Below, in pieces: positions 4,560 to 64,000 of a stretch of DNA of 64,000 nt. Source of the DNA: Candidatus Heimdallarchaeota archaeon (GTDB taxonomy: Archaea > Asgardarchaeota > Heimdallarchaeia > Heimdallarchaeales > Heimdallarchaeaceae); contig DAOVER010000003.1 of assembly GCA_030668875.1 (NCBI GenBank), forward strand, positions 3,395 to 67,394. The letters run 5' to 3'. The notes under the pieces were generated by a model. The model was not told the DNA's origin. It saw nothing but the letters and a program-made list of their open reading frames with translations, and made no database searches. The number at the start of each line of letters is the position of its first letter. Within the stretch, counting starts at the first letter, position 1. The position numbers and the translations under genes were made by a program.

Positions 4560-4620
4560 TATTCCCTTACTAAAATTACCTAACGAGACTTAATAAACGT
4601 TTCTGTTTGCATAAGAACGT

Positions 4621-7618: not shown

Positions 7619-8713
7619 ATGGAAATAGTTCAAATCCCAATAAACAAAATAAGTCCAAGTCCCTTCCAACCAAGAGAAACGTTTGATAAAGAAGCGATAG
7701 AAGAATTAGCAGCTTCAATTAAAGAATTTGATCTTCTTAATCCTATACTAGTTAGACCAACTGGTGACGAAAGCTACCAAATCGTAGCTGGTGAAAGAAG
7801 ATGGAGAGCTGCTCAATTTGCAGATCTAGACACAATCTACGCTATTGTAAGAGATATAGATGAAAGTAGACAGCGTGTTGAATCTTTAATAGAAAATATT
7901 CATAGAAAAGATCTTTACATGATTGAAAAAGGACGAGGAGTTTTAGAAATATTTAGAGCAGAAGGTATTATACAAAGTCCAAAAAGTTTAGCTAATATTA
8001 TTAATAGTATTGAAAGGAAGAAATCAAAAAATCTTTCACTTATCCCAACAGAGGATAGAATTAATGAGATCTGCCAGAAAATTCACATTAAATCTAATAC
8101 AATTAGGCTTTGGTTAGAATCTGCTTCAGTTAGTGAGGATATCATCAGTGAAGAATTCTCAAAACCTGAAGAAGAGAGAATTCCTGAAAGAATTTTATCA
8201 AGATTATCTACAATAGCTGATCCTGATTTGCAAAAGAAAACTTATGCAAAAATAGTCAATCAAGACATGGGTAAAGATGAAGCTAGTAAATTTGTTTCTC
8301 AAATTAAAAAAGTACCCAAGGCTGAACGAGAAGCTATCTTAACTACTGGAATTCCAATAGAAGTAATAGGAGATGCAAAAGAAGGCTACAGTATTGAAAT
8401 TCCTAAAGAGGAAATTGAATCTGTGAAGAAGGCAGTTGGAGTTGGCAAGAAGAAAGCAGCTGCAATACTAACCAAACCCATAATCGAAGAAAGAGGAAAA
8501 CATCGAAGGAATCAACAAGCCCATAGTAAACTTCTTGATTTACTTAACGATCTTTTCTGTCCTTGGTGTGGTAAACCCGCTTCTACTCATCTTCGTTGGA
8601 CCTGTCATTCCGATGAAACTTTAGCTGAGGCCAAAGAACAAGCAAAAGAAAACTATTCTGATGCAAATAAACGAGAAGAAGTTGATTCTCGATTTATGAA
8701 GAAGAAGAAATGA
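7619..8713 (+). CDS. ParB/Srx-like nuclease-domain protein with C-terminal zinc ribbon
   Basis: ILVRPTGDESYQIVAGERRWRAA (ParB N-terminal GERRxRAA motif); C-terminal CPWCGK...C..H. Confidence 0.55.
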   Translation: MEIVQIPINKISPSPFQPRETFDKEAIEELAASIKEFDLLNPILVRPTGDESYQIVAGERRWRAAQFADLDTIYAIVRDIDESRQRVESLIENIHRKDLYMIEKGRGVLEIFRAEGIIQSPKSLANIINSIERKKSKNLSLIPTEDRINEICQKIHIKSNTIRLWLESASVSEDIISEEFSKPEEERIPERILSRLSTIADPDLQKKTYAKIVNQDMGKDEASKFVSQIKKVPKAEREAILTTGIPIEVIGDAKEGYSIEIPKEEIESVKKAVGVGKKKAAAILTKPIIEERGKHRRNQQAHSKLLDLLNDLFCPWCGKPASTHLRWTCHSDETLAEAKEQAKENYSDANKREEVDSRFMKKKK

Positions 8714-16567: not shown

Positions 16568-17455
16568 TTATTTATACGCATCTACAGCTGAATCAGGGAT
16601 TTTCATTATCCCTAATCCGAAGACATAGGGTCCTACATGGCATAGAATATTTGCTCCAATAGGTTCGTAGAAGAAATACAATGGTTTGAATTGCTTATTT
16701 ATTTCCTCTGAAAAAGCCATGATCTCAGGATTATCAAGACCATACATAATAACCATAACATGGTTCACAAATTCTTTTGAGTACTGCTCTGCAATAGCTC
16801 GAAATTTATCCATACCCTCACTATAATTCTTGACTGTTCCAGCTGAAGTTATCTCTCCATCTTTCACAATAAGATGAGGTTTCAAACCCATTATAGTCCC
16901 CAATAGACTCTTTGCAGCTCCTATTCTTCCTCCTCTGCGTAGATATTCTAATGTATCTACCATGAAATGTAATTGGATATTCTTTTTCATTTCATTAATT
17001 TCATCTATGACAGTTTCAATAGGAATCCCTTGGTCTCTTCTTCTTATAGCATGATCAATCAGTAGGGATTGACCCCATGAAACAGTTTCGGTATCGACTG
17101 TGATGAAATCATCAGTCTTAAGACGTTTAGCAGTCATAATCGCATTCTGTAATGTTGCAGACATTTTAGCGCTGATTCCTAAATAGAGCACTTTCTCATA
17201 TTTTTTCAAAGCTGCTCTTATCACTTGATCAAAATCTATAGGAGGAGCAACTGATGTTGATGTTTTAGCTTTAACATTAATCATTTTATCAATAATTTCT
17301 TCTCTTGTAATATTATCTCGATCTATGTATTCTGTATCTCCAATCATTATTCTTGTTCTGATTAGAATTAAATCATGTTTCTTCATATAATCAAGACTAA
17401 AATCTGCACCAGAATCAGTCATGATACCAAATTTGTGGGTCATAGCTAGAAACAT
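16568..17455 (-). CDS. DegV-family (fatty-acid-binding, EDD-fold) protein
   Basis: N-terminal FGIMTDSGADFSLDY resembles the DegV TDSxxDL motif; size is typical. Confidence 0.65.
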   Translation of the reverse strand: MFLAMTHKFGIMTDSGADFSLDYMKKHDLILIRTRIMIGDTEYIDRDNITREEIIDKMINVKAKTSTSVAPPIDFDQVIRAALKKYEKVLYLGISAKMSATLQNAIMTAKRLKTDDFITVDTETVSWGQSLLIDHAIRRRDQGIPIETVIDEINEMKKNIQLHFMVDTLEYLRRGGRIGAAKSLLGTIMGLKPHLIVKDGEITSAGTVKNYSEGMDKFRAIAEQYSKEFVNHVMVIMYGLDNPEIMAFSEEINKQFKPLYFFYEPIGANILCHVGPYVFGLGIMKIPDSAVDAYK

Positions 17456-18041: not shown

Positions 18042-18121
18042 GAATAGAACATTGTAATGTTCCAAACCTTCTTTTTTTCTTTTTTGAATAAGTTTTTAAC
18101 TATATCTAATTATTTGCGATT

Positions 18122-18382
18122 GTGACTATTGTAGCTAACCATCTCAAGTGTGACTGTGCTAAAGTTGTGAAAATAGCTTCATGCCCCCGTCCCATTATTT
18201 CACCTACACTAGAACAAGATAATTCCTATTTTCACTGTCCTTATTGCAAACTTGATTATACTTGTAGTCAAGCTGTAAAAACTGTTCATGAAAAAGATAA
18301 ATATGGTTATCCACAATTGAAAAAGACAGTTTGTAGAAAATGTGGAACTGAAGTTGAAAGAAGAAAATGGCCTAATGATTAG
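18122..18382 (+). CDS. Small Cys-rich putative zinc-binding protein, paralog of 1798..2121
   Basis: HLKCDCAKVV...CP...HCPYCKLDY.C...CRKCGTEVE..WP; same Cys/His spacing as the 1798 ORF. Confidence 0.5.
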   Translation: MTIVANHLKCDCAKVVKIASCPRPIISPTLEQDNSYFHCPYCKLDYTCSQAVKTVHEKDKYGYPQLKKTVCRKCGTEVERRKWPND

Positions 18383-20037: not shown

Positions 20038-21090
20038 ATGTCTGAAAAATGGAAATTTATAGTTAATCCTAACGCTGGTACTCAAAGGTGTATTGAAAGA
20101 TGGGAGAAAGCTGAGCCAGTTATTAAAAAAAGTGGAATTGATTATGATGTTGTCTTCACAGAAGCTCGCAAACAAGGAAAGGAGCTAGTGACAAAGGCAA
20201 TTAATGATGGTTTTAACAGAATTATTATAGCAAGCGGTGATGGAGTTGTAAATGAGGCTATTAATGGGATAATGTCTTTTCCAGAAAAAAAGCGAAAGGA
20301 GATTGCTTTTGGAGTCTTACCTTTTGGAACTGGAAATGATTTAGCAACTTACATGGGCATCCCTTGGGAGCCAAAACATGCGGCTAAGACATTGATAGAG
20401 AAAACAGCTGTTTCACCTTCATCTATTGGTAAAGTAAAATATCATGATACAAAATTCGAAGTGTATTTTGGGAATATGTTTGATTTTGGGATATCATCTT
20501 TAGTTAATCTAGGTAATATGGCTGGGGAAATGAATTGGATAAAGGGTCCATCAAGGTATACTTTCTTAGCAATCAAGAAACTAGTGACTGTTAAACAAAG
20601 AAAAGGAACAATTATTCTAGATGATGGAGATCCAATAGACTTCAAATTGATGCTTTTAGCTATTGGAATTGGAAAATCTGTAGGTGGAGGTATGTTAGCT
20701 TGTGTCAATGCTCATCCCCAAAACGATTTCTTTGATGTATGTATAACTCAAAATCTTACAAAACCTAGAACTCTATTAGGGATTCAAAAGATTTTCAAAG
20801 GAGAGCACCTTAATTTAAAGGGAATGCAATACAAGCAAGCTAAGAAAATTGAAGTGACACTTGAAAGTCCAATAGGAATGGAGCATGATGGAGAAATCTA
20901 TGAAGAAGACGTTAGCTCTCATGTAGAAGTAAATATTATGCCACAAGCTTACAATGTTCTCTACAATACTGAACATCCATCTATGCACTGGTTGACTGAA
21001 GAAGAGCTTAAGCAGGGTAAAAAACCCGATGGTGTGGCTACTAAACATATGAAACATTGGGATGCTAGAATTTGGCAAGAGAAAAATTAG
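20038..21090 (+). CDS. Diacylglycerol-kinase catalytic-domain lipid kinase (YegS/BmrU-like)
   Basis: IVNPNAGT, IIIASGDGVVNEAINGI and GVLPFGTGNDLA, the DAGK_cat signature. Confidence 0.7.
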   Translation: MSEKWKFIVNPNAGTQRCIERWEKAEPVIKKSGIDYDVVFTEARKQGKELVTKAINDGFNRIIIASGDGVVNEAINGIMSFPEKKRKEIAFGVLPFGTGNDLATYMGIPWEPKHAAKTLIEKTAVSPSSIGKVKYHDTKFEVYFGNMFDFGISSLVNLGNMAGEMNWIKGPSRYTFLAIKKLVTVKQRKGTIILDDGDPIDFKLMLLAIGIGKSVGGGMLACVNAHPQNDFFDVCITQNLTKPRTLLGIQKIFKGEHLNLKGMQYKQAKKIEVTLESPIGMEHDGEIYEEDVSSHVEVNIMPQAYNVLYNTEHPSMHWLTEEELKQGKKPDGVATKHMKHWDARIWQEKN

Positions 21091-28799: not shown

Positions 28800-30272
28800 T
28801 CATAAGCATCTATCTACAGCTGAAGAACCCTTTTCATCATATTCTACTTTCGTTACCCAGAGGTTTCTTTCATTGAAAAGTTTCAAAGAAGCAAGAATTG
28901 AACCCCCTATCCAACTTTTGATTAATCTGTTTCTATCAGCTTTAACCTTAATTTCTATATGATTTGGAAGTTTGCTTCTAATATCTGAATAGAATCTTTC
29001 CTTGAAACCTCTATATAATGTGCCTCCACCAATTAGAACAATATTTGATAAAACAACTTTAAGTAAATCTGAATCGCATTTCTGAGCAGATTCTATTACG
29101 GCATCAGTTAGATCTCCAAGTTCTCCTGTTACACTTAAAGGTTCATTTCGGAATAGTATTTCAGGTGCTTTATACAAAATTTCTTCATATTTTACGAAAT
29201 CGTTATTGATGATATTTGCAGACCTTATCTGTCTATCTGTTTTCTGCCAAATCTGTTTTTCTTTCTTTGGGTTTTCAGAAACATAGCACAATTCTTCAGT
29301 AGCATATCGAATGTTGCTATCTATGATACTTTTTTGATTTGGGGTGCTTTTAGAATGAGCGATATGTTTGTTAGTATAGTCTTTCATCAATCTAGTAACA
29401 TCATTTGCTCCTGTATCTCGAATACTAACACTGTGAGTAATTAACCAACCATCGTAAATGGGAAGGATTCTAGTTGCTGAAGCCCCAATATTTACGATTA
29501 ATCCTGTTACATTTCCATCAGCATAAAGAGACAATAACTCTTTTATCGCAAAATACATCTTGGAAACGTTAAATTGGTCAAAAAGAACTCTAGCAATTTT
29601 CCTTCTAATTACCTTTGTTTGGTCATAAACTCCAACATAATCAAGCGCTTCTTCCTCACGAAGAATATTTTTTGCTTTTTCAGGTAACGTAGAATTGTTT
29701 ATCACATCCTTTTTTCCTTTAAGGGAATCAACATATTTGTCCATTTGTGGTCTCTCAAGAATCAGTATTGCTATCTTCGAAGGGTCTACTTCCATTTTCT
29801 CGAAGATATGACTAAAGAAAATCTCAAGATGTTTAAGGTCTATTTTCTCTTCAATAATGTCTGTATCAAGATAAATAGAAACTTTTTTGATAATTTTCTT
29901 CTTTGCTTTAATATTTGAATGTTGAATAAATGTATCTCCTTCTGCAGAATAAAATATTGTAGATTCAAAGATGTACCTCGGTTGATTTTCTCCTGCGAAC
30001 CCTACTTTGGTGAAGCTTGATCCTAAGTCAATTACCATAATTGTTGGGTTCTTTATTTTTTCAACCAATTGGACATTCTCTTCTAGAATCTTTAGACCTC
30101 TCTGTAATTTCATAAGATCAGTATTTTTCAAGAACTTCGAACATTGTTCACAATAATAACCAATTGTGATCCACTTGCGTTGTTCTGTTCCCTTCCTTAT
30201 ATAGACTCTTTGCATAGCTTTTCCACAATGTTTTGGTCTGGTTTTTTGCAGTTTTTCTGGCACTTTTTCCAC
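28800..30272 (-). CDS. Actin-family protein close to eukaryotic actin, with a Cys/His-containing N-terminal extension and altered phosphate-2 residues
   Basis: [23 protein letters not shown] matches actin [43 protein letters not shown] matches [48 protein letters not shown] matches [29 protein letters not shown]. Confidence 0.8.
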   Translation of the reverse strand: [490 protein letters not shown]

Positions 30273-34150: not shown

Positions 34151-34975
34151 TCATTGTTTATCGTCTACATCACTACTGCTATTTCTATGTTTTCTATTAA
34201 CTTGTTGTGCAATTTTAGCTGCCATAGCTCCTGCACTTATCCCCCCATCAATATTAACTACCGCTATTCCAAGTGCACAACTTTGTAACATACTCATCAA
34301 CGCAGTTTCACCCTTTCCTCCAAAACCATATCCTGTTGATATGGGTAGTCCAATGACTGGGATATCAACTAAACCTGCTACAACCGTTGGTAATGCTCCT
34401 TCCATACCTGCAGCAACAATCAGAACATCAACATCCTTCTTTAGTAGATTGTTCAAGGGCTCAAACAAGCGATGAATACCTGCAACACCAACGTCATGGA
34501 TCATAAATACTTCACACCCCATCATCTCTGCAATTGCCTTAGCTTCCTCAGCTACAGGGATATCTGAAGTTCCAGCGGTAATTATACCTATCCTTCCATT
34601 TTCTTTGGATGGAATATAATTATGTTTTTTTATAATACAAAACTTTTTTCCAGTTCCATATTTCACAATAAAATCACTGCTGAATTCTGCTATTTTTGGG
34701 ATGTGTTCTTCTGTAAGTCTTGAGAGCAGTACAATATTCTTTTTTTCAAGAACTTTCTTAGTAATTTCAACAACCGTCTCAGGAGATTTTGTTTCTGAAT
34801 AGATTACTTCTGGAATTCCAGTTCTAGCTTCTCTAAAAATGTCGTATTTAGCAAACTCTTCAATAACCTCAATCTGATTTGAGTTTAGATAGTTCTCTGC
34901 TTCTTCAACTGAAATCTTTCCAGAAGCCAGTTGCTCAAGAATTTCTTTTCTATTCATGATTCTCAGTTCCTTCAT
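34151..34975 (-). CDS. larB: LarB-like nickel-pincer cofactor biosynthesis carboxylase/hydrolase (PurE fold)
   Basis: C-terminal PurE-like IGIITAGTSDIPVAEEA...VGVAGIHRL; overlaps the larC-like gene by 26 nt. Confidence 0.65.
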   Translation of the reverse strand: MKELRIMNRKEILEQLASGKISVEEAENYLNSNQIEVIEEFAKYDIFREARTGIPEVIYSETKSPETVVEITKKVLEKKNIVLLSRLTEEHIPKIAEFSSDFIVKYGTGKKFCIIKKHNYIPSKENGRIGIITAGTSDIPVAEEAKAIAEMMGCEVFMIHDVGVAGIHRLFEPLNNLLKKDVDVLIVAAGMEGALPTVVAGLVDIPVIGLPISTGYGFGGKGETALMSMLQSCALGIAVVNIDGGISAGAMAAKIAQQVNRKHRNSSSDVDDKQ

Positions 34976-36185
34976 AATACATGTTAACCAGCTTAATTTC
35001 TAATTCATTAATTGGGACCTTGGTTTCATTTGCAATACTTGCAATATCCTCAAATTCAGGTTTTACACCTACTATTTCTCCGTCTAACATCCTTTCCTTA
35101 AAACGACATTGGAAACCCTTTCCTTCTACAGTTATCTCCTTTGTGACTACTCTTCTTTCTAGTTCATATCGTCCAAATCTATCCTCTCTAACGCCCAAAG
35201 TACCGAGTTCTTTCATCATGAATTTAGCTAATATTGAGGCTTTATCTTCATCACAAATTACTCTTAAACACCAAGCAGGTCTGTTCTTCTTCATAATAAG
35301 AGGGTAATAGGAAACATCTAGTGCTCCATGTTCCATTAGTTTGCTAACAATTCCTCCTAGTATCTCACCCGATACATCATCTAGATGAGTTTCTAGCATT
35401 GAGAGATAGTGTTTTGAACTTTCTTTATGCAAATCAACGAGAAGTGTTCTCAAAACATTTGACCTTGATGGAATATCTTTATTGCCTGAACCATACCCAA
35501 TACTCTGAACTCTTAGGGGTGGAAGCTGATTGATTTGATTAGTTACTAATCCGCCTAAAAGAATTATTCCTGTAGGAGTCAATAACTCACCATCGACTTC
35601 ATCACTGAAAAATGAATATTCTAATTTCTGAAGAATTTCTAATACAGCTGGAGGTGGCACAGAAACTTTTCCATGTGAAAAAGTAATAAATCCGCTTCCT
35701 ACATTTACTGGAAGTCCATAGATTGGTATATCTAGTAAACCATGCTTTTCTAATAACCAAATTGTTCCAACTATGTCCAGTATTGTATCAACACTTGCAG
35801 TTTCGTGCAAATGTAATTTTTCAATAGATCCTCCATGAACCTTGGATTCAGCTTGAAAAAGCAGCTGTAACATTTGTTGAGCTTTGTTTTTTGCTACACC
35901 AGAAAGATTAAGATTGTCAAGAACCTTCTTTAAAGAATCCATTAGATCTGAAGCATGATGACTCTTCAGATCCTCTTCTATATCTATCACTAAATGAGTT
36001 GAATTAATTCCTTTTTTGAGTATTTTTTCAACTTTTACATTCATTTTTGTGGATAATGTTGTGTTAATTGATGAAACAAGTTCGTCTAAATTTTCCTTAC
36101 TTTCTGTCAGATCTAAGATGCTTGAAAGAAACATGTCTCCAGAGCAACCTGCGATTCTAGGGTCAATAATTAATGCTTTACTCAC
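34950..36185 (-). CDS. larC: LarC-like (DUF111) nickel insertion protein
   Basis: N-terminal IDPRIAGCSGDMFLSSI matches the LarC G(I/C)SGDM motif; about 410 aa. Confidence 0.65.
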   Translation of the reverse strand: MSKALIIDPRIAGCSGDMFLSSILDLTESKENLDELVSSINTTLSTKMNVKVEKILKKGINSTHLVIDIEEDLKSHHASDLMDSLKKVLDNLNLSGVAKNKAQQMLQLLFQAESKVHGGSIEKLHLHETASVDTILDIVGTIWLLEKHGLLDIPIYGLPVNVGSGFITFSHGKVSVPPPAVLEILQKLEYSFFSDEVDGELLTPTGIILLGGLVTNQINQLPPLRVQSIGYGSGNKDIPSRSNVLRTLLVDLHKESSKHYLSMLETHLDDVSGEILGGIVSKLMEHGALDVSYYPLIMKKNRPAWCLRVICDEDKASILAKFMMKELGTLGVREDRFGRYELERRVVTKEITVEGKGFQCRFKERMLDGEIVGVKPEFEDIASIANETKVPINELEIKLVNMYYEGTENHE

Positions 36186-36999
36186 TGTCTATCACATCTT
36201 GAGGTAAAGGAATATTCATGGAACCTTGCCTATACCCTTCTAAATCAATTGTTATGTAATGAAAGCCAAGTCTTCTAAGTTTCATCACTAACATCTCTCG
36301 TTTTTCTTCTTCTAGAAATATTCCCATTTCTGAAATAGGAACTTCTATTCTAGCAATATTTTCATGTGCTCTTAATCTTAATGTTGTGACTCCAAAGATT
36401 TCACGAATAATAATTTCAGCTTGTTCAATCTTCTCTAATGTTGTTTCTGATATTTGTTGACCATAAGGGATTCTTGTTGCTAAACATGTTGATGCAGGTT
36501 TTTTAACAATTTCTAGTTCCATCTTACTTGCGATTTGCTTAATTTCTTCTTTTGTTATATTCAATTCTAAATAGGGACTTTTTATCCCTAGTTCTTTGAC
36601 TGCCTTCAATCCTGGTCTGTAATCAGAGAGATCTGTTTCATTTGATCCTTCTACGATAATATCGTAATTATGACTTTGCACTTCTTTAATGATACTTTGG
36701 ATGATTAATGTTTTACAGTAATAACATCTATCAGGACTGTTTTCAGTAATTTTTGGATGTTTTAAGGGATTTACACTGATTATCCTGTACTTTATTCTTC
36801 TACTTGTTAAATATCCAATAGCATATTGTGTATCCTTAGCTGGTACTAGAGAAGACTTTACAATAACTGGTAAAACGCTTTGAGATGTTTTCCTAGCAAT
36901 TTCTAATAAAACTGTACTGTCTAAACCTCCTGAAAATGCTACAACAATATTCTTATCGTGAAAATATTCTTGAAGCTTATTAATGATCTCATTTACCAT
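36178..36999 (-). CDS. larE: LarE-like PP-loop ATP pyrophosphatase (sulfur transferase)
   Basis: VVAFSGGLDSTVLL (SGGxDS PP-loop); about 270 aa; overlaps the larC-like gene by 8 nt. Confidence 0.65.
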   Translation of the reverse strand: MVNEIINKLQEYFHDKNIVVAFSGGLDSTVLLEIARKTSQSVLPVIVKSSLVPAKDTQYAIGYLTSRRIKYRIISVNPLKHPKITENSPDRCYYCKTLIIQSIIKEVQSHNYDIIVEGSNETDLSDYRPGLKAVKELGIKSPYLELNITKEEIKQIASKMELEIVKKPASTCLATRIPYGQQISETTLEKIEQAEIIIREIFGVTTLRLRAHENIARIEVPISEMGIFLEEEKREMLVMKLRRLGFHYITIDLEGYRQGSMNIPLPQDVIDSE

Positions 37000-37253: not shown

Positions 37254-38003
37254 ATGCATGTCAATGTTATTTGTTATGTGAGAGTCAGTACAGCGGATCA
37301 AACATCAGGAAGAGATACGCAAATTGATGTAATAGAAAAGAAAATCCAATCTTTGGGTTATAGACATATTTTAGAAACCTTCATCGATGAAGATGTTTCT
37401 GGTGATAGCCATATAGAAGAAAGACCAGGATTCAAGAGCCTTCTAAGTTATGTTAAAGAGTTTAACAAAAGCAATCCTGGTAACACTGTGAAGGAAATAT
37501 GGGTTCAGACAAGAGATCGTATATCAAGAAACGTAGATATGCTTGGTTACGCTTCAGTTGTTTTAAGAGCGAATGGTGTTGAAATCAGAGCTACTGAAGA
37601 ATCAGATGAAATGCTGGTTACAAGGATCTACGATATGCTTGGAGAAGAAGAACTCAAGAAATACAAACTGAAAAGAATGTATGGAATCAAAAGGAGAATC
37701 CAAGATAATAAGATAATGTCAAGACCACCTTTGGGATACATAATCAATGATGGAAAACTCGAGATTGATGAAGAAATGCGACCTAAGTTAATCGAGATAT
37801 TCCAAATGTTTGAAGACAACGAAACAATGTCAAAAATAAGTAACAAATTCGAAATACCAAGAAGTACTTTAGCTTATTTGAGGAAGAATCCCATTTATCG
37901 AACTGGAGAATATTATTGGAAAGGAAAGATCGTTTATCAAGTAGAACCAGTACTTAAAGAAGGAGACTTAATAGAACGCGATGAAGACGATTTCTACTAT
38001 TGA
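37254..38003 (+). CDS. Serine recombinase (resolvase/invertase family)
   Basis: CYVRVSTADQ (catalytic Ser), DEDVSGDS...RPGFKSLLSYV, RDRISRN, and C-terminal HTH ISNKFEIPRSTLAYL. Confidence 0.7.
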   Translation: MHVNVICYVRVSTADQTSGRDTQIDVIEKKIQSLGYRHILETFIDEDVSGDSHIEERPGFKSLLSYVKEFNKSNPGNTVKEIWVQTRDRISRNVDMLGYASVVLRANGVEIRATEESDEMLVTRIYDMLGEEELKKYKLKRMYGIKRRIQDNKIMSRPPLGYIINDGKLEIDEEMRPKLIEIFQMFEDNETMSKISNKFEIPRSTLAYLRKNPIYRTGEYYWKGKIVYQVEPVLKEGDLIERDEDDFYY

Positions 38004-45930: not shown

Positions 45931-46665
45931 ATGATAACTATTGATGTTCTATGGGCTACAGCCTTAGGTTATCTTTTAGGATCAATCCCTATCGCTTGGA
46001 TAGTAGTAAAATTATGGTTGAAAATAGATATTCGTACCGTAGGATCTAAAAATGTTGGAGGACGCAATGTTGTTAGAGCTTTCCGAGAACAAGAAAAACC
46101 AAAAGGTTTAGCTTACACAGTTGGAATTATTGAAGCTATACTTGATATGCTAAAAGGTTTCTTTGCAATGTGGTTAGCAGTCTGGATTTCATACGCTACT
46201 GCTGCAGATGGAGTTGTAGATCCATGGGTGATTGCTTTCGCTGGTCCAGCAGCTATTTTAGGTCATAATTGGCCAATTTGGTTGTGGGGTCCTGGAGGAA
46301 AAGGTGTTGCTTCAACACTTGGTTCATTAGCTTTCTTTAATCCCGTATTTATCCCAATCTGGATATTAGCATTCTTTGTTTTTGGATCAGCCATTATGTA
46401 CAGTTCGATAACTTACCTAGTTACCTTCGTAGTAATGGGAGTTATTCTGTTCTTTTGGACATGGATTGTATCTCCAATGGAGATGTTTCTGGTACCTGCA
46501 GATACGCCTGAACTAGGTCTTATTGCAATGGTAACAATGTTTGCAATAACATTAGTTGTACTTTCTCGACAAGGAGAGAACTTCCGTAAGATCAAGAATG
46601 GCGAAGCTAAAAAGATGAAACTTTGGAAAATTTTCAAAGGAAAAGCAGATGAAGCTTTAAAGTAA
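45931..46665 (+). CDS. plsY: PlsY-family (DUF205) acyl-phosphate:glycerol-3-phosphate acyltransferase-like protein
   Basis: GSKNVGGRNVVRAF matches GSGNPGATNVLR; LDMLKGF; GHNWPIWLWGPGGKGVAST matches HIWPVFFGFKGGKGVAT. Confidence 0.6.
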   Translation: MITIDVLWATALGYLLGSIPIAWIVVKLWLKIDIRTVGSKNVGGRNVVRAFREQEKPKGLAYTVGIIEAILDMLKGFFAMWLAVWISYATAADGVVDPWVIAFAGPAAILGHNWPIWLWGPGGKGVASTLGSLAFFNPVFIPIWILAFFVFGSAIMYSSITYLVTFVVMGVILFFWTWIVSPMEMFLVPADTPELGLIAMVTMFAITLVVLSRQGENFRKIKNGEAKKMKLWKIFKGKADEALK

Positions 46666-48004: not shown

Positions 48005-48215
48005 GGGTAAAACGAGGATTAAAGATAGAATTTAAACATTCACCATGTTACATCTTATTAGTATCTATCACATTCACAGTAATCTCTTTCAAAGTATTCT
48101 ACAATCAAAATAGCATGATATCCTTCATGCCCTTTACCTTTTTTCCTGTAACCAAAAAGAGATTTAATGGTAACTGGTGCACAGTAAACAACTGTGTCTG
48201 CAAATCTTATCCAAT

Positions 48216-48553
48216 CTTGCCAGAAGGGTTGTGGTGGGGAGTCATTGCACTCTACAAGGGAGGGCGGAAGTATTTTTACCTGCAGTACTTTTTCTACGGG
48301 TTTATATAGGAAAGTGCGGATAAGGAGGTAGTGCTAGGTGAATACTCACCGACAACTTGGTTCACAGGTGCTCGTTCACCTGTCCCTCAGCTAGTAGTAT
48401 TAGAACCAAGGAGCACTAAGCGCAACTGTAGGATGCAAATGGAGCACTTGCACACTCCGCTTCCTCCTACCCCTAATCATGAACCTCATGATTCTTCCCC
48501 TCAACGCACGTGAGGGAACCCACTTAAACGACGGTCAGAATGCTTCTGGCAAG
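48216..48553. ncRNA. GC-rich structured non-coding RNA candidate with an 11-bp terminal helix; candidate RNase P RNA or SRP RNA, strand and identity unresolved
   Basis: GC content is far above the flanking sequence. cttgccagaag (48216-48226) is complementary to cttctggcaag (48543-48553). Several internal hairpins (caggtg..cacctg, ggtga..tcacc, aatcatga..tcatgatt). Plus strand has a GGAAAGUGCGG element. The small ORFs 48115..48309 and 48331..48513 here are probably spurious. Confidence 0.45.
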
Positions 48554-48558
48554 TTTGA

Positions 48559-49626
48559 CCAAGTTTCATAACGTGCGTTTCCTATGATCCACCATCTTAC
48601 TCCTCACTAACACCACATGATCCAATATACATTACCTCTGATAGCAATTTCACAGATTATGGTTTTACCGGTTCAGGAGCGGAAGAAAATCCTTATCTTA
48701 TTGAGGAATATTATATAATAACAACAGATAACTATGGTATTCAGATTAAAGAGACAACAAAATATTTTGTTATTCGTAACTGCTATGTTGACGCAGGTTT
48801 CACGGGCATTTATATCACTGATGTAGCTGATGGATCAGCAACAATCATTAGCAATTCGTGCACAAACAACAGTAATGGTATCTATCTTTGGGATTCTAGT
48901 AATTCTATTGTTTCCAACAACACGTGCAACAACAACGACTATGGCATCGTTCTTGAGCATTCTGATAATTCTATTGTTTCAAACAACACGTGCAATTATA
49001 ACGACTGGGGCATTTATCTTGCAGGGTCAGGGAGTTTGACTGTTTCCAACAACACGTGCTACAACAACAAATGGAACGGCATTCTCCATTCCTCTTCTAG
49101 TAGCTCGATTATCATTAACAACATATGTAACAATAATGACTATGACGGCATTCGCCTTTCCTCTTCTGAAAGTTTGACTATCATTAACAACACGTGTAAC
49201 AACAATAATGTTTCTGGCATCTATTTTTTCTATTCTGATCTTTGTGTAGTTATTTACAATCTTATACAAGAAAATGAAGTCTATGGAGTCATCTTAAATC
49301 CAGATTCTGATAACAATATATTTCACCATAACACCTTTGTAGACAATAATCTAGGAGGAACTTCACAAGCGCATGATACGGGCAGTAACAATATTTGGCA
49401 TGACTCTGAAACACTTGAAGGCAACTATTGGTCAGATTGGTCAGGAACAGGAAGTTATTCTATTGATGGTTCTGCTGAAGCAATCGATCTCTATCCTCTA
49501 GATGAAGAAGGTAATCCTCCTGTTGTTCCTGAATATGACTCCCTTTCTTTATTTACTCTTCTAATACTGGTATTTCCTTTATTACTCACAATTGTTATCT
49601 ATCGAAAAAGAAAAAAAATAGCTTAA
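48559..49626 (+). pseudogene. 5'-truncated paralog of the beta-helix surface protein 55812..57851. The frame is open from a TGA at 48556-48558 but has no ATG, GTG or TTG before 49036.
   Basis: Hand translation gives ..DYGFTGSGAEENPYLIEEYYIITTDNYGIQIKETTKYFVIRNCYVDAGFTGIYITD.., matching GPTGYNFNGSGTTGDPYRIEDLTIDTE..YFVIQNCWIDAYDVGIYIQN in the intact paralog. Shared TLEGNYWS motif and C-terminal TM anchor. No signal peptide. The 5' end abuts the ncRNA candidate. Confidence 0.5.
48900..49100 (+). repeat. About 66-nt (22-aa) tandem repeats encoding NNTCNNN beta-helix coils
   Basis: attctattgtttccaacaacacgtgcaac recurs at about 48901, 48967 and 49035. Confidence 0.6.
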
Positions 49627-49788
49627 GTAACAACTCTTCCTCCTTTTTTTCCTTTAATATATCTCTAACCACAACGGATAATTTTCAAAATTAATTCTAT
49701 CTTGTTGAATGCAGAAAATTTTCGTGAGAAACATGATCTTTCAATTCGTAATAAGTAAGTTTTTTAGAAACGATGCGTTTTGTGAAGT

Positions 49789-50340
49789 GTGACCAACTCT
49801 GAATTCATTTTCAAAATCACTCTTATTGGTGACGGTGCCGTAGGTAAAACTTCTATTCGTCATCGTTACATGGGTTATGGTTTCAAAGAGTCACATTTGA
49901 TGACTTTAGGTGCAGATTTCAGTGTGATTGATAAGGAATTTAGAGAAGGTGAAACTTGGACTTATCAGATCTGGGACATTGCCGGACAGAAAATATTCGA
50001 AGAAATCAGGTCTAGATTCTATAAAGGTAGTATGGGTGCATTGGTCGTTTTTGACGTGACTGATAAGCAAACACTCCGTAATTGTCTTTCTTGGGTTAAG
50101 GAACTTTATCGTTTTTCAGGTAGTGATGCAATACCTGTTGTTTTATTAGCTAACAAATCTGATTTACGAAATCGCAAAAGTGTTGATATGAAAAAGGCTC
50201 ATAAGTTTGTGAAGATTCTAAATGAAGGAACAGCTAGTTATGGTTTTACTAATCATGTTCTAGAAACAAGTGCAAAAACAGGACTTAACATTGAAACAGC
50301 TTTCAAGTTGCTAGGTGATGCAATCCGGGCAAGATTTTAA
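49789..50340 (+). CDS. Ras-superfamily small GTPase (Rab/Ras-like)
   Basis: G1 LIGDGAVGKTS, G2 Thr in LMTLGADF, G3 WDIAGQ, G4 NKSDL, G5 ETSAK. Confidence 0.8.
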   Translation: MTNSEFIFKITLIGDGAVGKTSIRHRYMGYGFKESHLMTLGADFSVIDKEFREGETWTYQIWDIAGQKIFEEIRSRFYKGSMGALVVFDVTDKQTLRNCLSWVKELYRFSGSDAIPVVLLANKSDLRNRKSVDMKKAHKFVKILNEGTASYGFTNHVLETSAKTGLNIETAFKLLGDAIRARF

Positions 50341-50407
50341 TATTGTAATGATAAGAACGTTTTTGAAAGGAAAAATATTTAGTTAAATTGTTAGGGTAGT
50401 CTTATTT

Positions 50408-50971
50408 ATGGCTTACAAGATTCTTATACTTGGAGATTATGGTGTCGGAAAAACATCTCTTTACAATTACTACAAAGATAATGCTCCTGAAGCACAAGAA
50501 AAACCTGCTTTAAAGGTTAAATTACTTGAAATAAACAGAAGAATAGATGGAGAAGAAACTATCATTCATCTTTGTGATATCCCTGCTAAAGAATTATCTC
50601 CAATTAATAGACCCAAATTATATAAAAGAACTGTAGGAGCAATAATTTTGTTCGATATTAGTCGTCCAGATACTTTTAGACATGCACTATTTTGGATAGA
50701 AGAACTAATGAATTACAATGGTTTTGGTAAAGTTCCTATTGCTTTGCTAGGTAATAAAACCGATATAAGACATTCAAGTGAAAGAGTATTGAACCCCATT
50801 GATGCACAACAATTTATCTATAGATTAAACCGTTCCGCTAAAGCTTCAGGAACTAATATTGACAGCTCCTTCCATGAAATGTCAACAAAAGCAAAAGAAG
50901 CAAAAGGTTTGTTAGGTATTCTTGACCAGCTGATTAGAGCAATTATCAAACATAATGTTGAGAAGAAATAA
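50408..50971 (+). CDS. Divergent small GTPase (P-loop and NKxD present, switch II degenerate)
   Basis: ILGDYGVGKTSL, GNKTD and EMSTKA, but DxxGQ is replaced by LCDIPAKE. Confidence 0.55.
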   Translation: MAYKILILGDYGVGKTSLYNYYKDNAPEAQEKPALKVKLLEINRRIDGEETIIHLCDIPAKELSPINRPKLYKRTVGAIILFDISRPDTFRHALFWIEELMNYNGFGKVPIALLGNKTDIRHSSERVLNPIDAQQFIYRLNRSAKASGTNIDSSFHEMSTKAKEAKGLLGILDQLIRAIIKHNVEKK

Positions 50972-50983: not shown

Positions 50984-51565
50984 ATGTATCCCCTCGCTCA
51001 TATAGGTTACACATTATTTCTTGTAGAATTAGTTTTTATTTTCACTTATATTTTCCAAAAACTGAGAAATAGAGATCGAGTTACAATTCAATGGGGTATT
51101 AGATATGTTTCTTTGTACGCATTGTTATTGGGGTCATTAGGTCCTGATATTATAGACAAAGCAATATCCTTACCAATTACGGGAAATGGAAGATATGTTG
51201 GGCATTCTTTGCTCTTTAATGTAGTAATTTCGCTGAGTGTTCTTGCAATATTCTGGAAAAATAAACGAATCTGGATAGGATTCATTGTTGGATGGCAAAT
51301 GCATATTCTCTTGGATTTAGGTGGTTTCATACCTTGGTTATTTCCATTCGTAAACTATGAATTTCCAGAGAGAGTACATACATTTTGGGAAATGCTCCAA
51401 CTTCCTTCAGTTTATCTCAATGAGATATTCGGTTCTTTATGTTTGATTCTTCTGATTATGCTTTATTTACATAGAAAAATACCTGTACGAAACATGCTAA
51501 AAGAGGATTTCTTTAAACACCCTTCTTATCTCAAACCTATCGACAAAAATGGGAAAAATATTTAG
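50984..51565 (+). CDS. Membrane protein, possibly DUF457/YdjM-like metal-dependent hydrolase
   Basis: N-terminal MYPLAHIGYTLFL and several His residues in TM context; weak. Confidence 0.25.
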   Translation: MYPLAHIGYTLFLVELVFIFTYIFQKLRNRDRVTIQWGIRYVSLYALLLGSLGPDIIDKAISLPITGNGRYVGHSLLFNVVISLSVLAIFWKNKRIWIGFIVGWQMHILLDLGGFIPWLFPFVNYEFPERVHTFWEMLQLPSVYLNEIFGSLCLILLIMLYLHRKIPVRNMLKEDFFKHPSYLKPIDKNGKNI

Positions 51566-58097: not shown

Positions 58098-58658
58098 CTA
58101 GATACCTAATCTCATGTAAATCTTACTTATCAAATTTTGAAAAGAATTATCTACATTTTGTCCTGATAGTGCTGATGTTTCTATGTAATCTACTCTTAAT
58201 CCTCCCCATTGGGATAAAGTTTCAGCATAAGCCATTGCTGATAGTTTGTCAACTTGCACCTCTGCTGGAGTAGTTGCTCTTAGATCTGATTTATTTCCTA
58301 CTATCATCATAGGAACAAGTTTGTGATTGTTGTATTTTATCAGTTCGTTTATCCAGTAATCAATGTTGGTAAACGTGTTTGGTCTGGTTATATCAAATAC
58401 GACTAATGCTCCATAAGTACCTGCATAATAAGCTCCTCGTACTTCTGAAAACCTTGGCTGTCCAGCTAAATCCCACAATTGTAAATTAATTACATAATCT
58501 TCAAAAGATACTTGTTTGACAGAAAAATCAGCTCCTATTGTCATCAAATAATTTTCTCTAAAACTTTTTCCTATAAAATTCCTTCTCAGACTTGTCTTAC
58601 CTACAGCTCCGTCACCAATCAAAACTACTTTAAATATTTTTCCAACATCGCCTGACAT
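58098..58658 (-). CDS. Ras-superfamily small GTPase (Rab-like)
   Basis: G1 LIGDGAVGKTSL, G2 Thr in LMTIGADF, G3 WDLAGQ, G4 GNKSDL, G5 ETSAL. Confidence 0.8.
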   Translation of the reverse strand: MSGDVGKIFKVVLIGDGAVGKTSLRRNFIGKSFRENYLMTIGADFSVKQVSFEDYVINLQLWDLAGQPRFSEVRGAYYAGTYGALVVFDITRPNTFTNIDYWINELIKYNNHKLVPMMIVGNKSDLRATTPAEVQVDKLSAMAYAETLSQWGGLRVDYIETSALSGQNVDNSFQNLISKIYMRLGI

Positions 58659-61060: not shown

Positions 61061-61624
61061 CTATTCAATTCCAGATTCCAGTTTCCTTAAATCTCTATTG
61101 AATAGGATTATAGTTTTGATTCTCATATAAATGATGCTTATTACTTTGAGCAGTATAATTAAGAGTGATAAAGAAAAAAACATTGAAATCTGGTCTGTCA
61201 TGTCTATAGAGCCTTGATAGTTGAATGAATATCTTATGATGATATTTATTTCAAAAAACATAATCAATATTTGAGAAAACAACGATGCAAATAGAAGCGG
61301 TTTTACTTTATTATACGTTTTTAGAGAAATAATGAATATGCAAATTGTTAATAAAATAAGAATGGTTACTGGTATTAAATCTGATCGAGAAAACATTATC
61401 CTATAAAATGAGGACCCTATACTAATGAGTGACCTATCGCTCTCAAATACAACCAGGTAGTTTAATATTGGTAGTAATATCAATGAGTACACGAAAAACC
61501 ACTTATCTAATTTCGTCTCATCTGTGAACAATGTCTTCAAGGAATGTGACAAAGCTTTAAGGTTTTTCCATGATAGATTCCACTTGATTTTTCTTATACC
61601 TCTGATTATAGGCATCATAACCAC
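61061..61624 (-). CDS. Hypothetical membrane protein (downstream of the ABC transporter genes)
   Basis: ORF track; 4 TM. Confidence 0.3.
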   Translation of the reverse strand: MVMMPIIRGIRKIKWNLSWKNLKALSHSLKTLFTDETKLDKWFFVYSLILLPILNYLVVFESDRSLISIGSSFYRIMFSRSDLIPVTILILLTICIFIISLKTYNKVKPLLFASLFSQILIMFFEINIIIRYSFNYQGSIDMTDQISMFFSLSLLIILLKVISIIYMRIKTIILFNRDLRKLESGIE

Positions 61625-61696: not shown

Positions 61697-62524
61697 TTAA
61701 TACTTCAATTCTCTTTTTTGGAATATTAGTAATGCACCTATTAGAGCTGCTAGGCCCACTCCTAGTAACACAAAGAAATCTCCTACAGGGAAAGTTCCTG
61801 ATGACACAATTGCTGCAAAGTTCATATAATTAAAGACAGAGAAGTATTTTATAATTTCTACTGATTCTGTCATGTCACCAATCCTAAACAGAAGGAACAT
61901 GCCAAATATTACAGTTGCTGATACTCCTAAAGCTTTTCTTGGATCTAATATTAAAACTGAACAAAACAGAGCAATAGCCCCTAAACTGAAAAAAAGCATC
62001 CAAGTTCCAATCATTGAATAAGTTAATGCTAAATAATCAAATTCAACATTTAGATGAGCATAGTTATATTGTAAGTATTCAGTACTGATGAAAGTAAACA
62101 GCATTAGTAATAATGGGTAGAGTAAACTATAGAACAGATACACGCTGAATTTCTCTAACAAAAATCTCCAACGAGGGATAGGATAGCTTAATGTCACGTC
62201 AAGAGTTTTCTTGTTGATCTCCTCAGTTATAATTTTTGTTGGAATGAAAATTGTGACAGCAATAATATAATATTCAAGCATTATACTCATATACATCTGA
62301 TGTGCTCCGGGCCATACTGCGATATTAAAAATACCCATATCTCCTAGCATAGCTGCATATACTGGGCTTTCAAGAATTACAGCGAATAAGTCAGCTGCTT
62401 CTCTCATGTCAGGCCAGATTGCTGCTATTAAAAGAACAAATAATCCGAGTGAAAGAGGAATTATAATTCCAGCTTTCCATTTTTTTACTAAGTTTTTTAG
62501 AAATATATGTACCATATTTTTCAC
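61697..62524 (-). CDS. ABC-2 type transporter permease
   Basis: 6 TM, about 275 aa; start abuts the stop of the ATPase gene (62524/62525). Confidence 0.5.
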   Translation of the reverse strand: MKNMVHIFLKNLVKKWKAGIIIPLSLGLFVLLIAAIWPDMREAADLFAVILESPVYAAMLGDMGIFNIAVWPGAHQMYMSIMLEYYIIAVTIFIPTKIITEEINKKTLDVTLSYPIPRWRFLLEKFSVYLFYSLLYPLLLMLFTFISTEYLQYNYAHLNVEFDYLALTYSMIGTWMLFFSLGAIALFCSVLILDPRKALGVSATVIFGMFLLFRIGDMTESVEIIKYFSVFNYMNFAAIVSSGTFPVGDFFVLLGVGLAALIGALLIFQKRELKY

Positions 62525-63454
62525 CTAATCGTAATAATGTAAGAAGATTTCTTCCAAGCTTGCGTCTTCAATTGACAATCTCTCTATTTCATATCCTTTC
62601 AACCAATTTATGAGGTCATCAATATTCTCCTTTATTTTGAGTTTGAAGTCTCCGTTATTTTTTTGATTTGCATCTAAAACAAAATCAAGCTCCTTTATTT
62701 CTTCTAATTGCGGCACTTTGCTAGAGGAAAATCTCACAAATACATGCTGTAAGAATTTTTTCCTGAGGTTTTCTACATCCTCAACAAGAACCATCTCGCC
62801 ATTCTTTATAATGCCAACTCTATCACAGATAGCTTGTACTTCAGTTAAATCATGAGAACTAAGAAAAATAGTTACACCTTCTTTTTTAAGACGTTTTAAT
62901 AATTTATGAAATTTGGCTGTAATCAAAGGGTCCAGTCCTGAACTGGGTTCATCTAGAATTAGAAATTCAGGTTTAGAAGCTAAAGCTAAGATGATTCCTA
63001 CCTGTTGTCTGTTACCTGAGGATAACGTTCTTGTTTTTTGTTTTAGATTTACTGTAAAAATTGTTCTCAATTCTTCTAATAATTCTAAATTATTTTGTCG
63101 GAAATGGTTGAAATATTTAATAAGTTCTTCTCCTGTGAAATTGTCATAAACCGCTAAATCACCTGGTATATAGCCTATTCTTTTTCTTATTTCTAGAGAA
63201 TTTTTTCTATGGTCTAGACCAAAGACGCTAATTTCTCCCTCTTCAATCCTTAGATAATTCAATATTGATCTCATAACTGTGGTTTTTCCAGCTCCATTCG
63301 GACCTAAAAACCCGAAAATTTCGCCTTTAGAAACTGAAAAACTTACATTTTGAGCTCCGATAATCTTCTTACCGAATTTTCTTAAACCTAAATGTATCTC
63401 TCTTCCGTAAACTTTTGTTAGATTGCTTACTTGAAGAACCGTTGCTTGTGTCAT
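62525..63454 (-). CDS. ABC transporter ATP-binding protein
   Basis: Walker A GPNGAGKTT, signature LSSGNRQQV, Walker B LILDEPSSGLD, H-loop SSHDL. Confidence 0.85.
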   Translation of the reverse strand: MTQATVLQVSNLTKVYGREIHLGLRKFGKKIIGAQNVSFSVSKGEIFGFLGPNGAGKTTVMRSILNYLRIEEGEISVFGLDHRKNSLEIRKRIGYIPGDLAVYDNFTGEELIKYFNHFRQNNLELLEELRTIFTVNLKQKTRTLSSGNRQQVGIILALASKPEFLILDEPSSGLDPLITAKFHKLLKRLKKEGVTIFLSSHDLTEVQAICDRVGIIKNGEMVLVEDVENLRKKFLQHVFVRFSSSKVPQLEEIKELDFVLDANQKNNGDFKLKIKENIDDLINWLKGYEIERLSIEDASLEEIFLHYYD

Positions 63455-63484: not shown

Positions 63485-64000
63485 TTATATGTTTTCTATT
63501 CTGGTTTTTATCCTTCCTATTGCTTCTTTTATCGTTTCTAATTTTTGTGAGTAAGAGAATCTAAGATATTTTCTTCCTGATTTCTTAGTATTATTATCTC
63601 CATAGAAACTTGTTCCAGGCACTGTTGCGACTCCTTTATCCTTAACTAGAAAATCAGCAAATTCCAAATCTGTTTGACCAAAGGAACTAATATCTGCAAA
63701 CACATAGTATGCCCCTGAAGGAATGAAAGTATCAAATCCTATATTGTTTAATTCTTTTGTTAGGAAATCTCTGTTTGTTCGATATCTTTGCTTTAACTCA
63801 TCGAAATAATCCTCTTTAAGATTAAAGGATTCAAGAACGGAATATTGTAAAGGTGACGGGGCACAAACTGTTAGATAATCATGCACTTTCCTAACTCCTG
63901 ACATTAATTCCTTCTCAGCTGCAGCATAACCTATTCTCCAACCTGTTATAGAAAATGTTTTACTGAATCCTGAAATTGTAATTGTTCTTTCGTACATATC
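63485..64000 (-). CDS. Class I/II aminotransferase, C-terminal part (gene continues past the window end)
   Basis: FSKTFSITGWRIGYAAA (PLP-Lys SxSKxxxxxGxRxGY motif); the frame is open to the window edge. Confidence 0.6.
   Translation of the reverse strand, partial: DMYERTITISGFSKTFSITGWRIGYAAAEKELMSGVRKVHDYLTVCAPSPLQYSVLESFNLKEDYFDELKQRYRTNRDFLTKELNNIGFDTFIPSGAYYVFADISSFGQTDLEFADFLVKDKGVATVPGTSFYGDNNTKKSGRKYLRFSYSQKLETIKEAIGRIKTRIENI

Follow-up and report, generated by a model that had tools for sequence, protein, structure and literature searches.

No known relatives of eukaryotes are closer than the Asgard archaea, whose many Ras-like GTPases, known since the first Lokiarchaeota genomes, are central to questions about the origins of membrane trafficking and signalling. 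The RasL nomenclature for Asgard small GTPases reportedly goes back to Klinger et al. 2016. Nearly all attention has gone to the canonical members, and "broken switches" (Rnd, RhoH, RGK, and others) have previously been regarded as a eukaryotic elaboration. We describe here three small GTPase genes, G1, G2, and G3, in a stretch of 64,000 nucleotides from Candidatus Heimdallarchaeota archaeon (assembly GCA_030668875.1, contig DAOVER010000003.1, positions 3,395 to 67,394 of the forward strand; this whole stretch is called the window, and its first letter is position 1). G1 and G3 are canonical, but G2 belongs to a conserved family with substitutions at most of the residues on which the Ras switch depends. 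The locus shows that in Heimdallarchaeia, too, a non-canonical and probably GTPase-deficient Ras-like protein arose and was long kept beside a canonical partner, behind a conserved regulatory element.

In the survey of Vargova et al., RasL proteins cluster with Rab, Ras, Rho, and Ran, and no Asgard sequences are specifically sister to eukaryotic Rabs (10.1101/2024.02.28.582541); the structure of a Thorarchaeota Rab-like protein (7ezb, Tran et al. 2024) has a typical core without prenylation sites (PMC10933270). The three genes of the window agree with this picture in most respects: like other Asgard RasL proteins they encode single G domains of about 185 residues which score best against eukaryotic Rab, Ras, and Rho, lack prenylation cysteines, and, as is usual for RasL genes, do not lie in operons with roadblock, longin, or TRAPP genes. 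Only G2 departs from the RasL proteins, at Ras positions 12, 28, 35, 59, 60, and 61. The three open reading frames (ORFs) lie where the initial annotation had placed them, the strand of G3 having gone unstated:

49789..50340, plus strand: G1, 183 aa with a GTG start, canonical Ras/Rab-like small GTPase (Pfam Ras, motifs)
50408..50971, plus strand: G2, 187 aa, atypical Ras-like GTPase (Pfam Ras, AlphaFold2 fold, motif table)
58098..58658, minus strand: G3, 186 aa, second canonical Ras/Rab-like GTPase, about 7 kb downstream (Pfam Ras, PDB, synteny)

Membership of all three in the Ras superfamily, as first proposed, is borne out, well past what chance would give, by Pfam, by PDB sequence matches, and by an AlphaFold2 model of G2. 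Specifically, i) Pfam Ras (PF00071) matches G1, G2, and G3 with E-values of 4.4e-38, 1.3e-19, and 2.7e-46 (130.8, 70.8, and 157.6 bits; gathering cut-off 21.6), and NCBIfam small_GTP (TIGR00231) with 71.3, 48.4, and 86.8 bits (cut-off 42.5); ii) the profile check that the initial annotation had proposed ranks Ras first for each protein, followed by Roc and then Arf, with Roc matching G2 at 1.2e-11, more weakly than Ras does, and Gtr1_RagA matching G1 weakly (6e-06, 26.3 bits; cut-off 22 bits) and G2 not at all; iii) the Ras profile covers residues 9-179 of G1 and 4-161 of G2, with no additional domain in either; iv) in phmmer comparisons with all PDB chains, in which nearly every match apart from 7ezb is a eukaryotic Rab, the top matches of each protein are eukaryotic Rab1, Rab8, and Rab11, the best for G1 being Rab1B and Rab8A (1e-31; Thorarchaeota Rab 7ezb, 6e-28), while G3 matches Rab1B at 8e-35 and 7ezb at 1e-34; and v) the G2 model, built with 22 family sequences as input (predicted local distance difference test 88, predicted template modeling score 0.87), superposes on Rab10, Rab43, Rab7, and KRas with template modeling (TM) scores of 0.7-0.8. 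Best matches to bacterial MglA or Era, the outcome named in advance as contrary to this assignment, were not seen: neither MglA nor Era chains occur among the best 60 PDB matches listed for each protein. Nor did the Pfam scan find, next to G1, G2, or G3, the roadblock/LC7 gene of an MglA/MglB system.

G1 has the complete set of five GTPase motifs claimed for it (GDGAVGKT, the switch I Thr in MTLGADF, DIAGQ, NKSD, and SAK); G3 has the same P-loop GDGAVGKT and NKSD, SAL as its G5 motif, and canonical switch positions; and the switch I Thr, DxxGQ, and the residues at positions 12 and 59 are canonical in every G1 ortholog (n=20) and every G3 ortholog (n=7). G1 and G3 are ordinary Asgard RasL switches with a complete apparatus for GTP binding and hydrolysis. 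The five Rab-specific motifs RabF1-F5 are said to have been defined by Pereira-Leal and Seabra in 2000 as IGVDF, KLQIW, RFrsiT, YYRGA, and LVYDIT; compared by eye with this consensus, G3 comes near (IGADF, NLQLW, RFSEVR, YYAGT, VVFDIT), G1 is partly alike (LGADF, TYQIW, IFEEIR, FYKGS, VVFDVT), and G2 is mostly unlike it (ALKVK, IIHLC, ELSPIN, LYKRT, ILFDIS). The combination of a Rho/Rac-type P-loop with a Rab-like switch I in G1 and G3 fits the mosaic picture of RasL proteins. The three C-termini (...AIRARF in G1, ...KHNVEKK in G2, ...YMRLGI in G3) contain no Cys, and no CC, CXC, or CAAX prenylation cysteines were found there; the proteins are therefore not Rabs in the strict sense, so that "third canonical Rab-like gene", as G3 had been called, holds for similarity but not for Rab membership. 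By similarity, not phylogeny, G1, G2, and G3 appear to belong with the Asgard RasL group.

In Ras, Gln61 positions the attacking water, Gly12 leaves space for the arginine finger of a GTPase-activating protein (GAP), and Thr35 and Gly60 make the loaded-spring contacts to the γ-phosphate that drive switching. Substitutions at positions 12 and 61 are the classic GTPase-dead oncogenic changes and abolish both intrinsic and GAP-stimulated hydrolysis; the dominant-negative G60A blocks the conformational change, and Q61R or Q61K lock Ras in the GTP state. Ras numbering was transferred by aligning H-Ras with G2 and its homologs and with the orthologs of G1 and G3; in this alignment the G2 of the window reads G12Y, F28P, T35A, A59P, G60A, and Q61K. 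It retains G10, G15, K16, T17, D57, E62, N116, K117, D119, S145, and K147, and has STK as its G5 motif; its other landmarks are:

50432..50455, plus strand: P-loop GDYGVGKT
50507..50509, plus strand: switch I Ala (A34, equivalent to Ras T35)
50576..50593, plus strand: DIPAKE in place of DxxGQ
50753..50764, plus strand: NKTD

Retention of the P-loop and NKTD, and replacement of DxxGQ, had been noted correctly from the start; "degenerate switch II" is also true as a description of G2 but understates the change, since Thr35, Gly12, and Phe28 are replaced as well. A two-residue insertion after the G5 motif (STKAKEAKG in the window, STKEAKG in all close relatives; 50885..50896 region, residues about 160-164) is not a sequencing error, because the identical protein is found in three independent assemblies (two Logan assemblies and one 110-kb NCBI contig).

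How far these changes extend was judged from about 25 distinct members of the G2 family. Position 61 is Arg in most species, Lys in the subclade of the window, and Thr in one lineage (seen as P0017 and L022), but never Gln, so that it is basic in 24 of 25 members; position 35 is Ser or Ala, never Thr; position 59 is Pro in all; and position 12 is Tyr in most. Ala takes the place of Gly60 only in the window subclade (about 7 species) and in P0023, and Arg does so in L007. K16, S/T17, D57, NKxD, and S-x-K are invariant, as are Pro59 and Glu62, and the family signature is D-[IFL]-P-x-[RK]-E combined with the absence of Thr at position 35. The switch II of the window G2 is the extreme end of a family-wide change, in which only Q61 to K/R is common to the family and G60 to Ala is a subclade trait. 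A basic residue 61 is uncommon, though other cases exist: the 150 best matches, a set biased toward the query, contain 245 G domains, of which 131 have Gln, 13 Arg, and 11 Lys.

An exhaustive profile search of 1.84 billion representatives found two full-length 50%-identity clusters in the G2 family (P0022, 243 bits; P0023, 225 bits) and two fragments; the next single-domain matches, at about 109 bits, are canonical WDIAGQ proteins. When one genome from each GTDB species was scanned, 18 G2 loci came to light, of which 15 are labelled Heimdallarchaeota (including the original AB_125 metagenome-assembled genome), 1 Thorarchaeota, and 2 "uncultured archaeon". G2 is 30% identical to G1 and 31% to G3, and cross-scores between the family hidden Markov models (HMMs) likewise favour neither paralog as its origin. 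We take G2 to be a narrow family confined to Heimdallarchaeia and an old paralog. In public records its members are annotated as "GTP-binding protein" or "Rab family GTPase", and we found no published description of the clade, nor any paper on Asgard pseudoGTPases. G2 is a lineage-specific, atypical offshoot of known RasL proteins, and a modest extension of what is known of Asgard archaea; it leaves the current picture of Asgard biology unchanged and is no categorical surprise.

Of the three paralogs, G2 evolves fastest, and canonical motifs have disappeared from it, as might be expected of a decaying duplicate without a function of its own. The ratio of nonsynonymous to synonymous substitution (dN/dS, by the Nei-Gojobori method for pairs with unsaturated dS) is nevertheless low for all three genes (G2 0.10-0.17, G1 0.06-0.10, G3 0.03-0.08); more than 25 genomes have an intact G2 ORF, even where identity has fallen to 45%; and 44 positions, new family-specific ones among them, are invariant in 22 sequences reaching down to 47% identity. 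G2 is under purifying selection and is a functional gene; pseudogene status is rejected on dN/dS and conservation and is effectively refuted, so that decay strikes us as extremely improbable.

What has changed is where the constraint falls. In a species-matched comparison of 18 genomes, the P-loop, α1, switch I, switch II, and β4 are the best-conserved parts of G1 (entropy 0.22-0.55 bits) and are about twice as variable in G2 (0.67-1.59 bits); helix α3 (RPDTFRHA-FWIEEL-NY-G), on the other hand, is markedly more conserved in G2 (0.45 vs 0.97 bits), and the α4 region (LNPIDA--F-FRLNR) somewhat more so (0.73 vs 0.89 bits). A shift of constraint from the switches to α3 is the pattern expected if the interactions of G2 have left the nucleotide-dependent surfaces.

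We consider it about an even bet (probability roughly 0.5) that G2 is a Ras-like protein which binds nucleotide, is impaired as a GTPase, for the most part does not cycle, and acts through its α3/α4 face; "hydrolysis-deficient or regulated differently", as the initial annotation put it, is the best-supported reading, though one drawn from sequence. The G2 of the window carries Q61K, G12Y, T35A, and G60A, the changes by which a GTPase-deficient atypical GTPase is recognized in sequence. The proposed mechanism is that i) guanine nucleotide and Mg2+ would be bound through the retained P-loop Lys and Thr, Asp57, NKxD, and S-x-K; ii) with Lys or Arg in place of the catalytic Gln61, GTP would be hydrolysed very slowly; iii) a bulky Tyr in place of Gly12, which blocks the arginine finger in Ras, would make G2 insensitive to arginine-finger GAPs; iv) replacement of Thr35, the γ-phosphate and Mg2+ sensor, by Ala or Ser would remove a residue of the canonical cycle, and replacement of Gly60 by Ala would remove the second loaded-spring residue in the window subclade; v) the basic residue 61 probably contacts the γ-phosphate; and vi) G2 would be "always on", mostly GTP-bound, and controlled by abundance and partners rather than by a GTPase cycle, probably acting through the strongly conserved α3/α4 face, and apparently expressed from a promoter of its own resembling that of G1, beside which it has stayed since the family arose. 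Nucleotide binding, slow hydrolysis, a partner surface, and the transcription units are thus predictions, whereas the residue states, fold, purifying selection, shift of constraint, and synteny are observations.

A eukaryotic precedent exists in Rnd1-3/RhoE and RhoH, which like G2 keep the G domain and the nucleotide motifs but have substitutions at the equivalents of G12 and Q61. These substitutions leave Rnd and RhoH constitutively bound to GTP; without the glycine at position 12 they are GTP-loaded on synthesis, constitutively active, and regulated by expression and turnover (PMC13236570). Unlike G2, they belong to the Rho subfamily, are prenylated, keep Thr35 and Gly60, and do not have a basic residue at position 61; as there is no evolutionary link, the likeness must be convergent. 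Oncogenic Ras G12x and Q61K/R and the dominant-negative G60A affect the same positions with the same kinds of substitution, and the G2 of the window is in effect a natural G12Y/T35A/G60A/Q61K combination; the Ras mutants, however, are somatic or engineered single changes in a working switch, whereas the changes in G2 are fixed, ancient, and under purifying selection.

We wish to stress that several points weigh against a non-cycling G2. Phe28, which stacks on the guanine, is replaced by Pro, and nucleotide affinity could therefore be low or exchange fast, and the alignment is also less certain in this segment; retention of a basic residue 61 over a long divergence suggests a positive role for the side chain; most of the family keeps Ser35 and Gly60, so that an ancestral G2 could still have switched; G2 may still cycle, by analogy with Arg1398 of LRRK2; and loss of the cis-Gln is no proof of inactivity, because Rap1GAP and the TBC GAPs of Rabs supply catalytic residues in trans.

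The LRRK2 analogy is the basis of the most serious rival. In the Roc domain of LRRK2, Arg1398 occupies the position of Gln61 and has been proposed as an intramolecular γ-phosphate sensor needed for switching and hydrolysis; models place it in contact with the γ-phosphate, and hydrolysis is reduced by R1398H (PMC13345514). Like G2, Roc is a natural Ras-like G domain with a basic residue in switch II (D-x-x-G-R-E). If Arg/Lys61 of G2 were likewise a sensor or intrinsic finger in cis, it could order switch II on GTP binding, support slow hydrolysis, and compensate for the lost Thr35, and G2 would be a working switch. Residue 61 is basic in 24 of 25 members over saturated synonymous divergence, Pro59 and Glu62 are invariant around it, and G2 does match Pfam Roc; we take this alternative seriously because Arg or Lys is strictly retained where loss of function would permit any residue. 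In Ras, however, Q61R and Q61K lock the GTP state, and in G2 Tyr12, joined in the window clade by Ala35 and Ala60, removes other parts of the sensing apparatus, while the switch regions as a whole are relaxed relative to G1. The host proteins also differ: Roc is embedded in a Roc-COR-kinase protein, as Roc and COR share one protein in Roco proteins generally, and keeps the switch I Thr and the P-loop geometry; G2 stands alone, without a COR domain or an LRRK2-like dimerisation module, without Thr35, and in the window clade also without Gly60, and single-domain G1, G2, and G3 each match Roc below Ras. On balance, a sensor in cis is unlikely.

Catalytic residues may also come from a partner, as with the Asn thumb of Rap1GAP and the dual finger of TBC domains. 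Rap-RapGAP is reportedly described by Scrima 2008 as the case of a GTPase without a cis-Gln, and offers a precedent for a G2 that cycles normally with a dedicated GAP, its degenerate motifs reflecting obligate GAP dependence; D57, the P-loop, and E62 are retained. But Tyr12 would hinder insertion of a finger, Ala35 and Ala60 affect switching and not catalysis alone, and no candidate (TBC, RapGAP, roadblock/longin, or MglB-like) was found in the window scan or the conserved neighbourhood. The scan compared about 60 window ORFs with Pfam (all of at least 110 aa plus nine smaller ones from gaps, leaving out 61061..61624, 61697..62524, 62525..63454, and 63485..63997 at the 3' end) and found no roadblock (Robl_LC7), longin, TBC, or DENN partner, although Pfam could miss very divergent roadblock folds. 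Syntenic loci of relatives likewise yielded no Robl_LC7 or longin genes, and the MglB-like partners that the initial annotation had thought worth seeking are therefore absent from both, as far as Pfam can tell. We accordingly give dependence on a dedicated GAP a slim chance.

A further alternative concerns G1 as much as G2. In relatives, H+-pyrophosphatase (H+-PPase) and major facilitator superfamily (MFS) genes, an optional NosD-like gene, G1, G2, and an optional YdjM gene are followed by genes for a class-V aminotransferase, a P-type ATPase, a β-helix protein, G3 (on the opposite strand), and a peroxiredoxin, and this G1-G2-...-G3 order recurs where G2 is only 45-60% identical to that of the window (G3 is syntenic in L003, L004, L008, L011, L013, and L030). 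Of the 23 distinct lineages with upstream DNA, 20 have a true G1 ortholog as the gene immediately before G2, with both on the same strand. In L013, L030, and L034 other genes have come to lie between the two; in L013 the insertion is a Kelch-repeat gene on the opposite strand. As the exceptions are insertions rather than losses, adjacency of G1 and G2 must be ancestral; equally, the insertions imply that G2 can be expressed alone and that co-transcription is not obligatory. In the P0022 lineage (L034 1670..7909, GCA_019057815.1; also L030 559..1470) we observe an island of about 6 kb between G1 and G2 which contains a PAS-domain protein and four Arf-family GTPase paralogs of about 300 aa (one was compared with Pfam and matched Arf at 1e-32), G1 still lying beside the MFS gene and G2 beside YdjM. 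Each Arf paralog has a C-terminal extension of about 120 aa, which had no Pfam match in the one scanned and may be a roadblock/longin-type fusion like those of Tran et al. 2024. Downstream of G2 in the window lies:

50984..51565, plus strand: membrane protein of the YdjM family, 193 aa, 12 nt beyond the end of G2 (Pfam YdjM 2.2e-09)

A YdjM gene follows G2 in the window clade, L007, L032, and L034 but is absent in L003, L004, and L013.

The region between and before the two genes contains conserved elements which we judged from cross-species spacer conservation, since scans with sigma-70 promoter and intrinsic-terminator models, unsuited to archaea, gave nothing useful:

49748..49767, plus strand: 20-nt element GTAATAAGTAAGTTTTTTAG, separated by 21 nt from the start codon of G1; marks the conserved unit's 5' edge
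50341..50407, plus strand: G1-G2 spacer, 67 nt
50350..50369, plus strand: promoter-like ATAAGAACGTTTTTGAAAG, containing a T5 run after the G1 stop
50393..50399, plus strand: Shine-Dalgarno-like AGGGTAG, 9-15 nt before the G2 ATG

The 20-nt element occurs once in the window and once per locus in relatives; 17 of 20 species have it, about 41 nt upstream of the G1 start. The blastn matches to L014, L016, and L018 begin exactly at 49748, and the element has been kept although synonymous sites are saturated. It is probably a promoter of G1 (BRE/TATA-type, that is, a TFIIB recognition element with a TATA box) or an operator, and from its position the T-run would fit an archaeal TATA box for a leaderless or near-leaderless G1 mRNA. 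A generic promoter was considered and rejected, the element being unique in the 64 kb and present once per locus; conservation beyond the needs of a generic promoter implies that it may include a transcription-factor site. The spacer between G1 and G2 is 55-67 nt long in 18 lineages and has elements recurring across clades, namely ATAAG-N3-4-TTTTTG-AAA, related to the 20-nt element, followed by Shine-Dalgarno-like GTGAT or GGGTAG. This conservation suggests that G2 has its own promoter similar to that of G1, and the T-run of the spacer possibly doubles as a terminator for G1. Upstream of G3, AACAATAAGATATAAATA lies about 30 nt from the ATG.

Ancestral same-strand adjacency, similar promoter-like elements before both genes, and an unusually conserved α3/α4 surface of G2, away from the switches, are all features one might expect if G1 and G2 formed a heterodimer of a canonical and an atypical subunit, like RagA/B-RagC/D or Gtr1-Gtr2, in which the nucleotide state or the Lys/Arg of G2 modulated G1, or the reverse. 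Rag and Gtr are likewise paralogous G proteins working as a pair, and Rag-like pairs in operons have been reported for an Asgard archaeon (PMC10933270). Rag and Gtr proteins, however, dimerise through a C-terminal roadblock domain and the Rag G domains keep the catalytic machinery, whereas G1 and G2 consist of nothing beyond a G domain (183-187 aa); insertions between the two genes are tolerated in three lineages; the surrounding block of about 10 kb is also syntenic, so that adjacency may only reflect slow rearrangement; and no fused G1-G2 protein exists among the 1.84 billion representatives. Multi-domain proteins do rank high in the G2 profile search, because several generic Ras-like domains add up, but none of the top matches with multiple GTPase domains contains a G2-type domain (79 bits or less with the family HMMs, against more than 220 for true members). 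A heterodimer accordingly seems rather improbable.

A broader proposal combines several of these elements: Arg/Lys61 would be a built-in γ-phosphate sensor or finger, G2 and canonical G1 would form a two-GTPase module without roadblock domains, and the locus would also be a nursery of GTPase genes, four Arf paralogs having been inserted in one lineage. We offer this as a speculation with little chance of being right in full; if it were, the G1-G2 module would be a simple prokaryotic forerunner of paired or asymmetric GTPases such as Rag heterodimers and LRRK2-type sensing. With or without such a module, the G2 family bears on the role of a basic residue at the Gln61 position, in LRRK2 too, and on whether paired GTPases predate eukaryotes, and it is tractable: the protein is small and soluble-looking, with canonical paralogs as controls.

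The window differs from its relatives just upstream of G1, where the H+-PPase and MFS genes are absent. The stretch 48005..49626 begins with 1 kb in which GC is slightly raised and long ORFs are lacking; after it comes a truncated NosD/β-helix ORF (49036..49626; 196 aa, compared with 434-771 aa in relatives). At the nucleotide level, homology to the NosD gene of L011 extends upstream of this ORF to 48577, and 48309..48578 matches the far end of the L011 contig in reverse orientation. The region is probably a disrupted gene at a rearrangement breakpoint.

Elsewhere in the window, tRNA and Rfam scans gave no matches, and the following genes were identified:

7619..8713, plus strand: ParB_N-domain protein
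16568..17455, minus strand: DegV fatty-acid-binding protein (Pfam 5e-61)
20038..21090, plus strand: DAGK/YegS-type lipid kinase (Pfam 1e-29)
28800..30272, minus strand: actin homolog (Pfam Actin 1e-59, residues 78-488)
34151..36999, minus strand: LarB/LarC/LarE-like nickel-pincer cofactor cluster (AIRC, Ni_insertion 5e-108, PP-loop ATPase)
37254..38003, plus strand: serine recombinase (Resolvase 4e-17)
45931..46665, plus strand: PlsY-like glycerol-3-phosphate acyltransferase (Pfam 2e-34)

The actin homolog, whose presence beside several small GTPases the initial annotation had regarded as a hallmark of Asgard archaea, is indeed there, and the Asgard origin is confirmed by homologs named Heimdallarchaeaceae or Heimdallarchaeota and by actin and TATA-binding protein (TBP) genes in the window, the latter also found by Pfam. 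The actin homolog has an additional N-terminal segment of about 75 aa with two CxxC pairs (CGKAMQ...CEQC) and a zinc-ribbon-like look. The PlsY-like, DegV, and DAGK/YegS genes are bacterial-type lipid genes in an archaeal genome, and the serine recombinase and ParB_N protein may be remnants of mobile elements. The ORF at 13890..15206 (minus strand), which adjoins a peptidase C25-like fragment, encodes a 438-aa protein with hydrophobic segments predicted at its ends and a weakly matching prenyltransferase α-α toroid repeat (Pfam 3e-08); the product is probably a surface protein, and a link to GTPase prenylation is unlikely because the C-termini of the GTPases lack Cys.

Several small paralogous ORFs complete the window. 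Two Cys-rich ORFs at 1801..2157 (minus strand) and 18110..18379 (plus strand), one adjoining the TBP gene and the other a histidine-kinase-like gene, share HLKCDC-K-V---CP...Y(Y/F)HCPYCK-DY-C...C-KC-T without matching Pfam. Two similar helix-turn-helix-like proteins of about 228 aa are encoded at 3048..3734 and 3870..4559 (both minus strand), and two paralogous proteins of about 90-107 aa with a common motif at 4677..4997 and 5108..5377 (both plus strand); the two pairs, which together span 3048..5377, adjoin a coiled-coil protein at 5547..6335.

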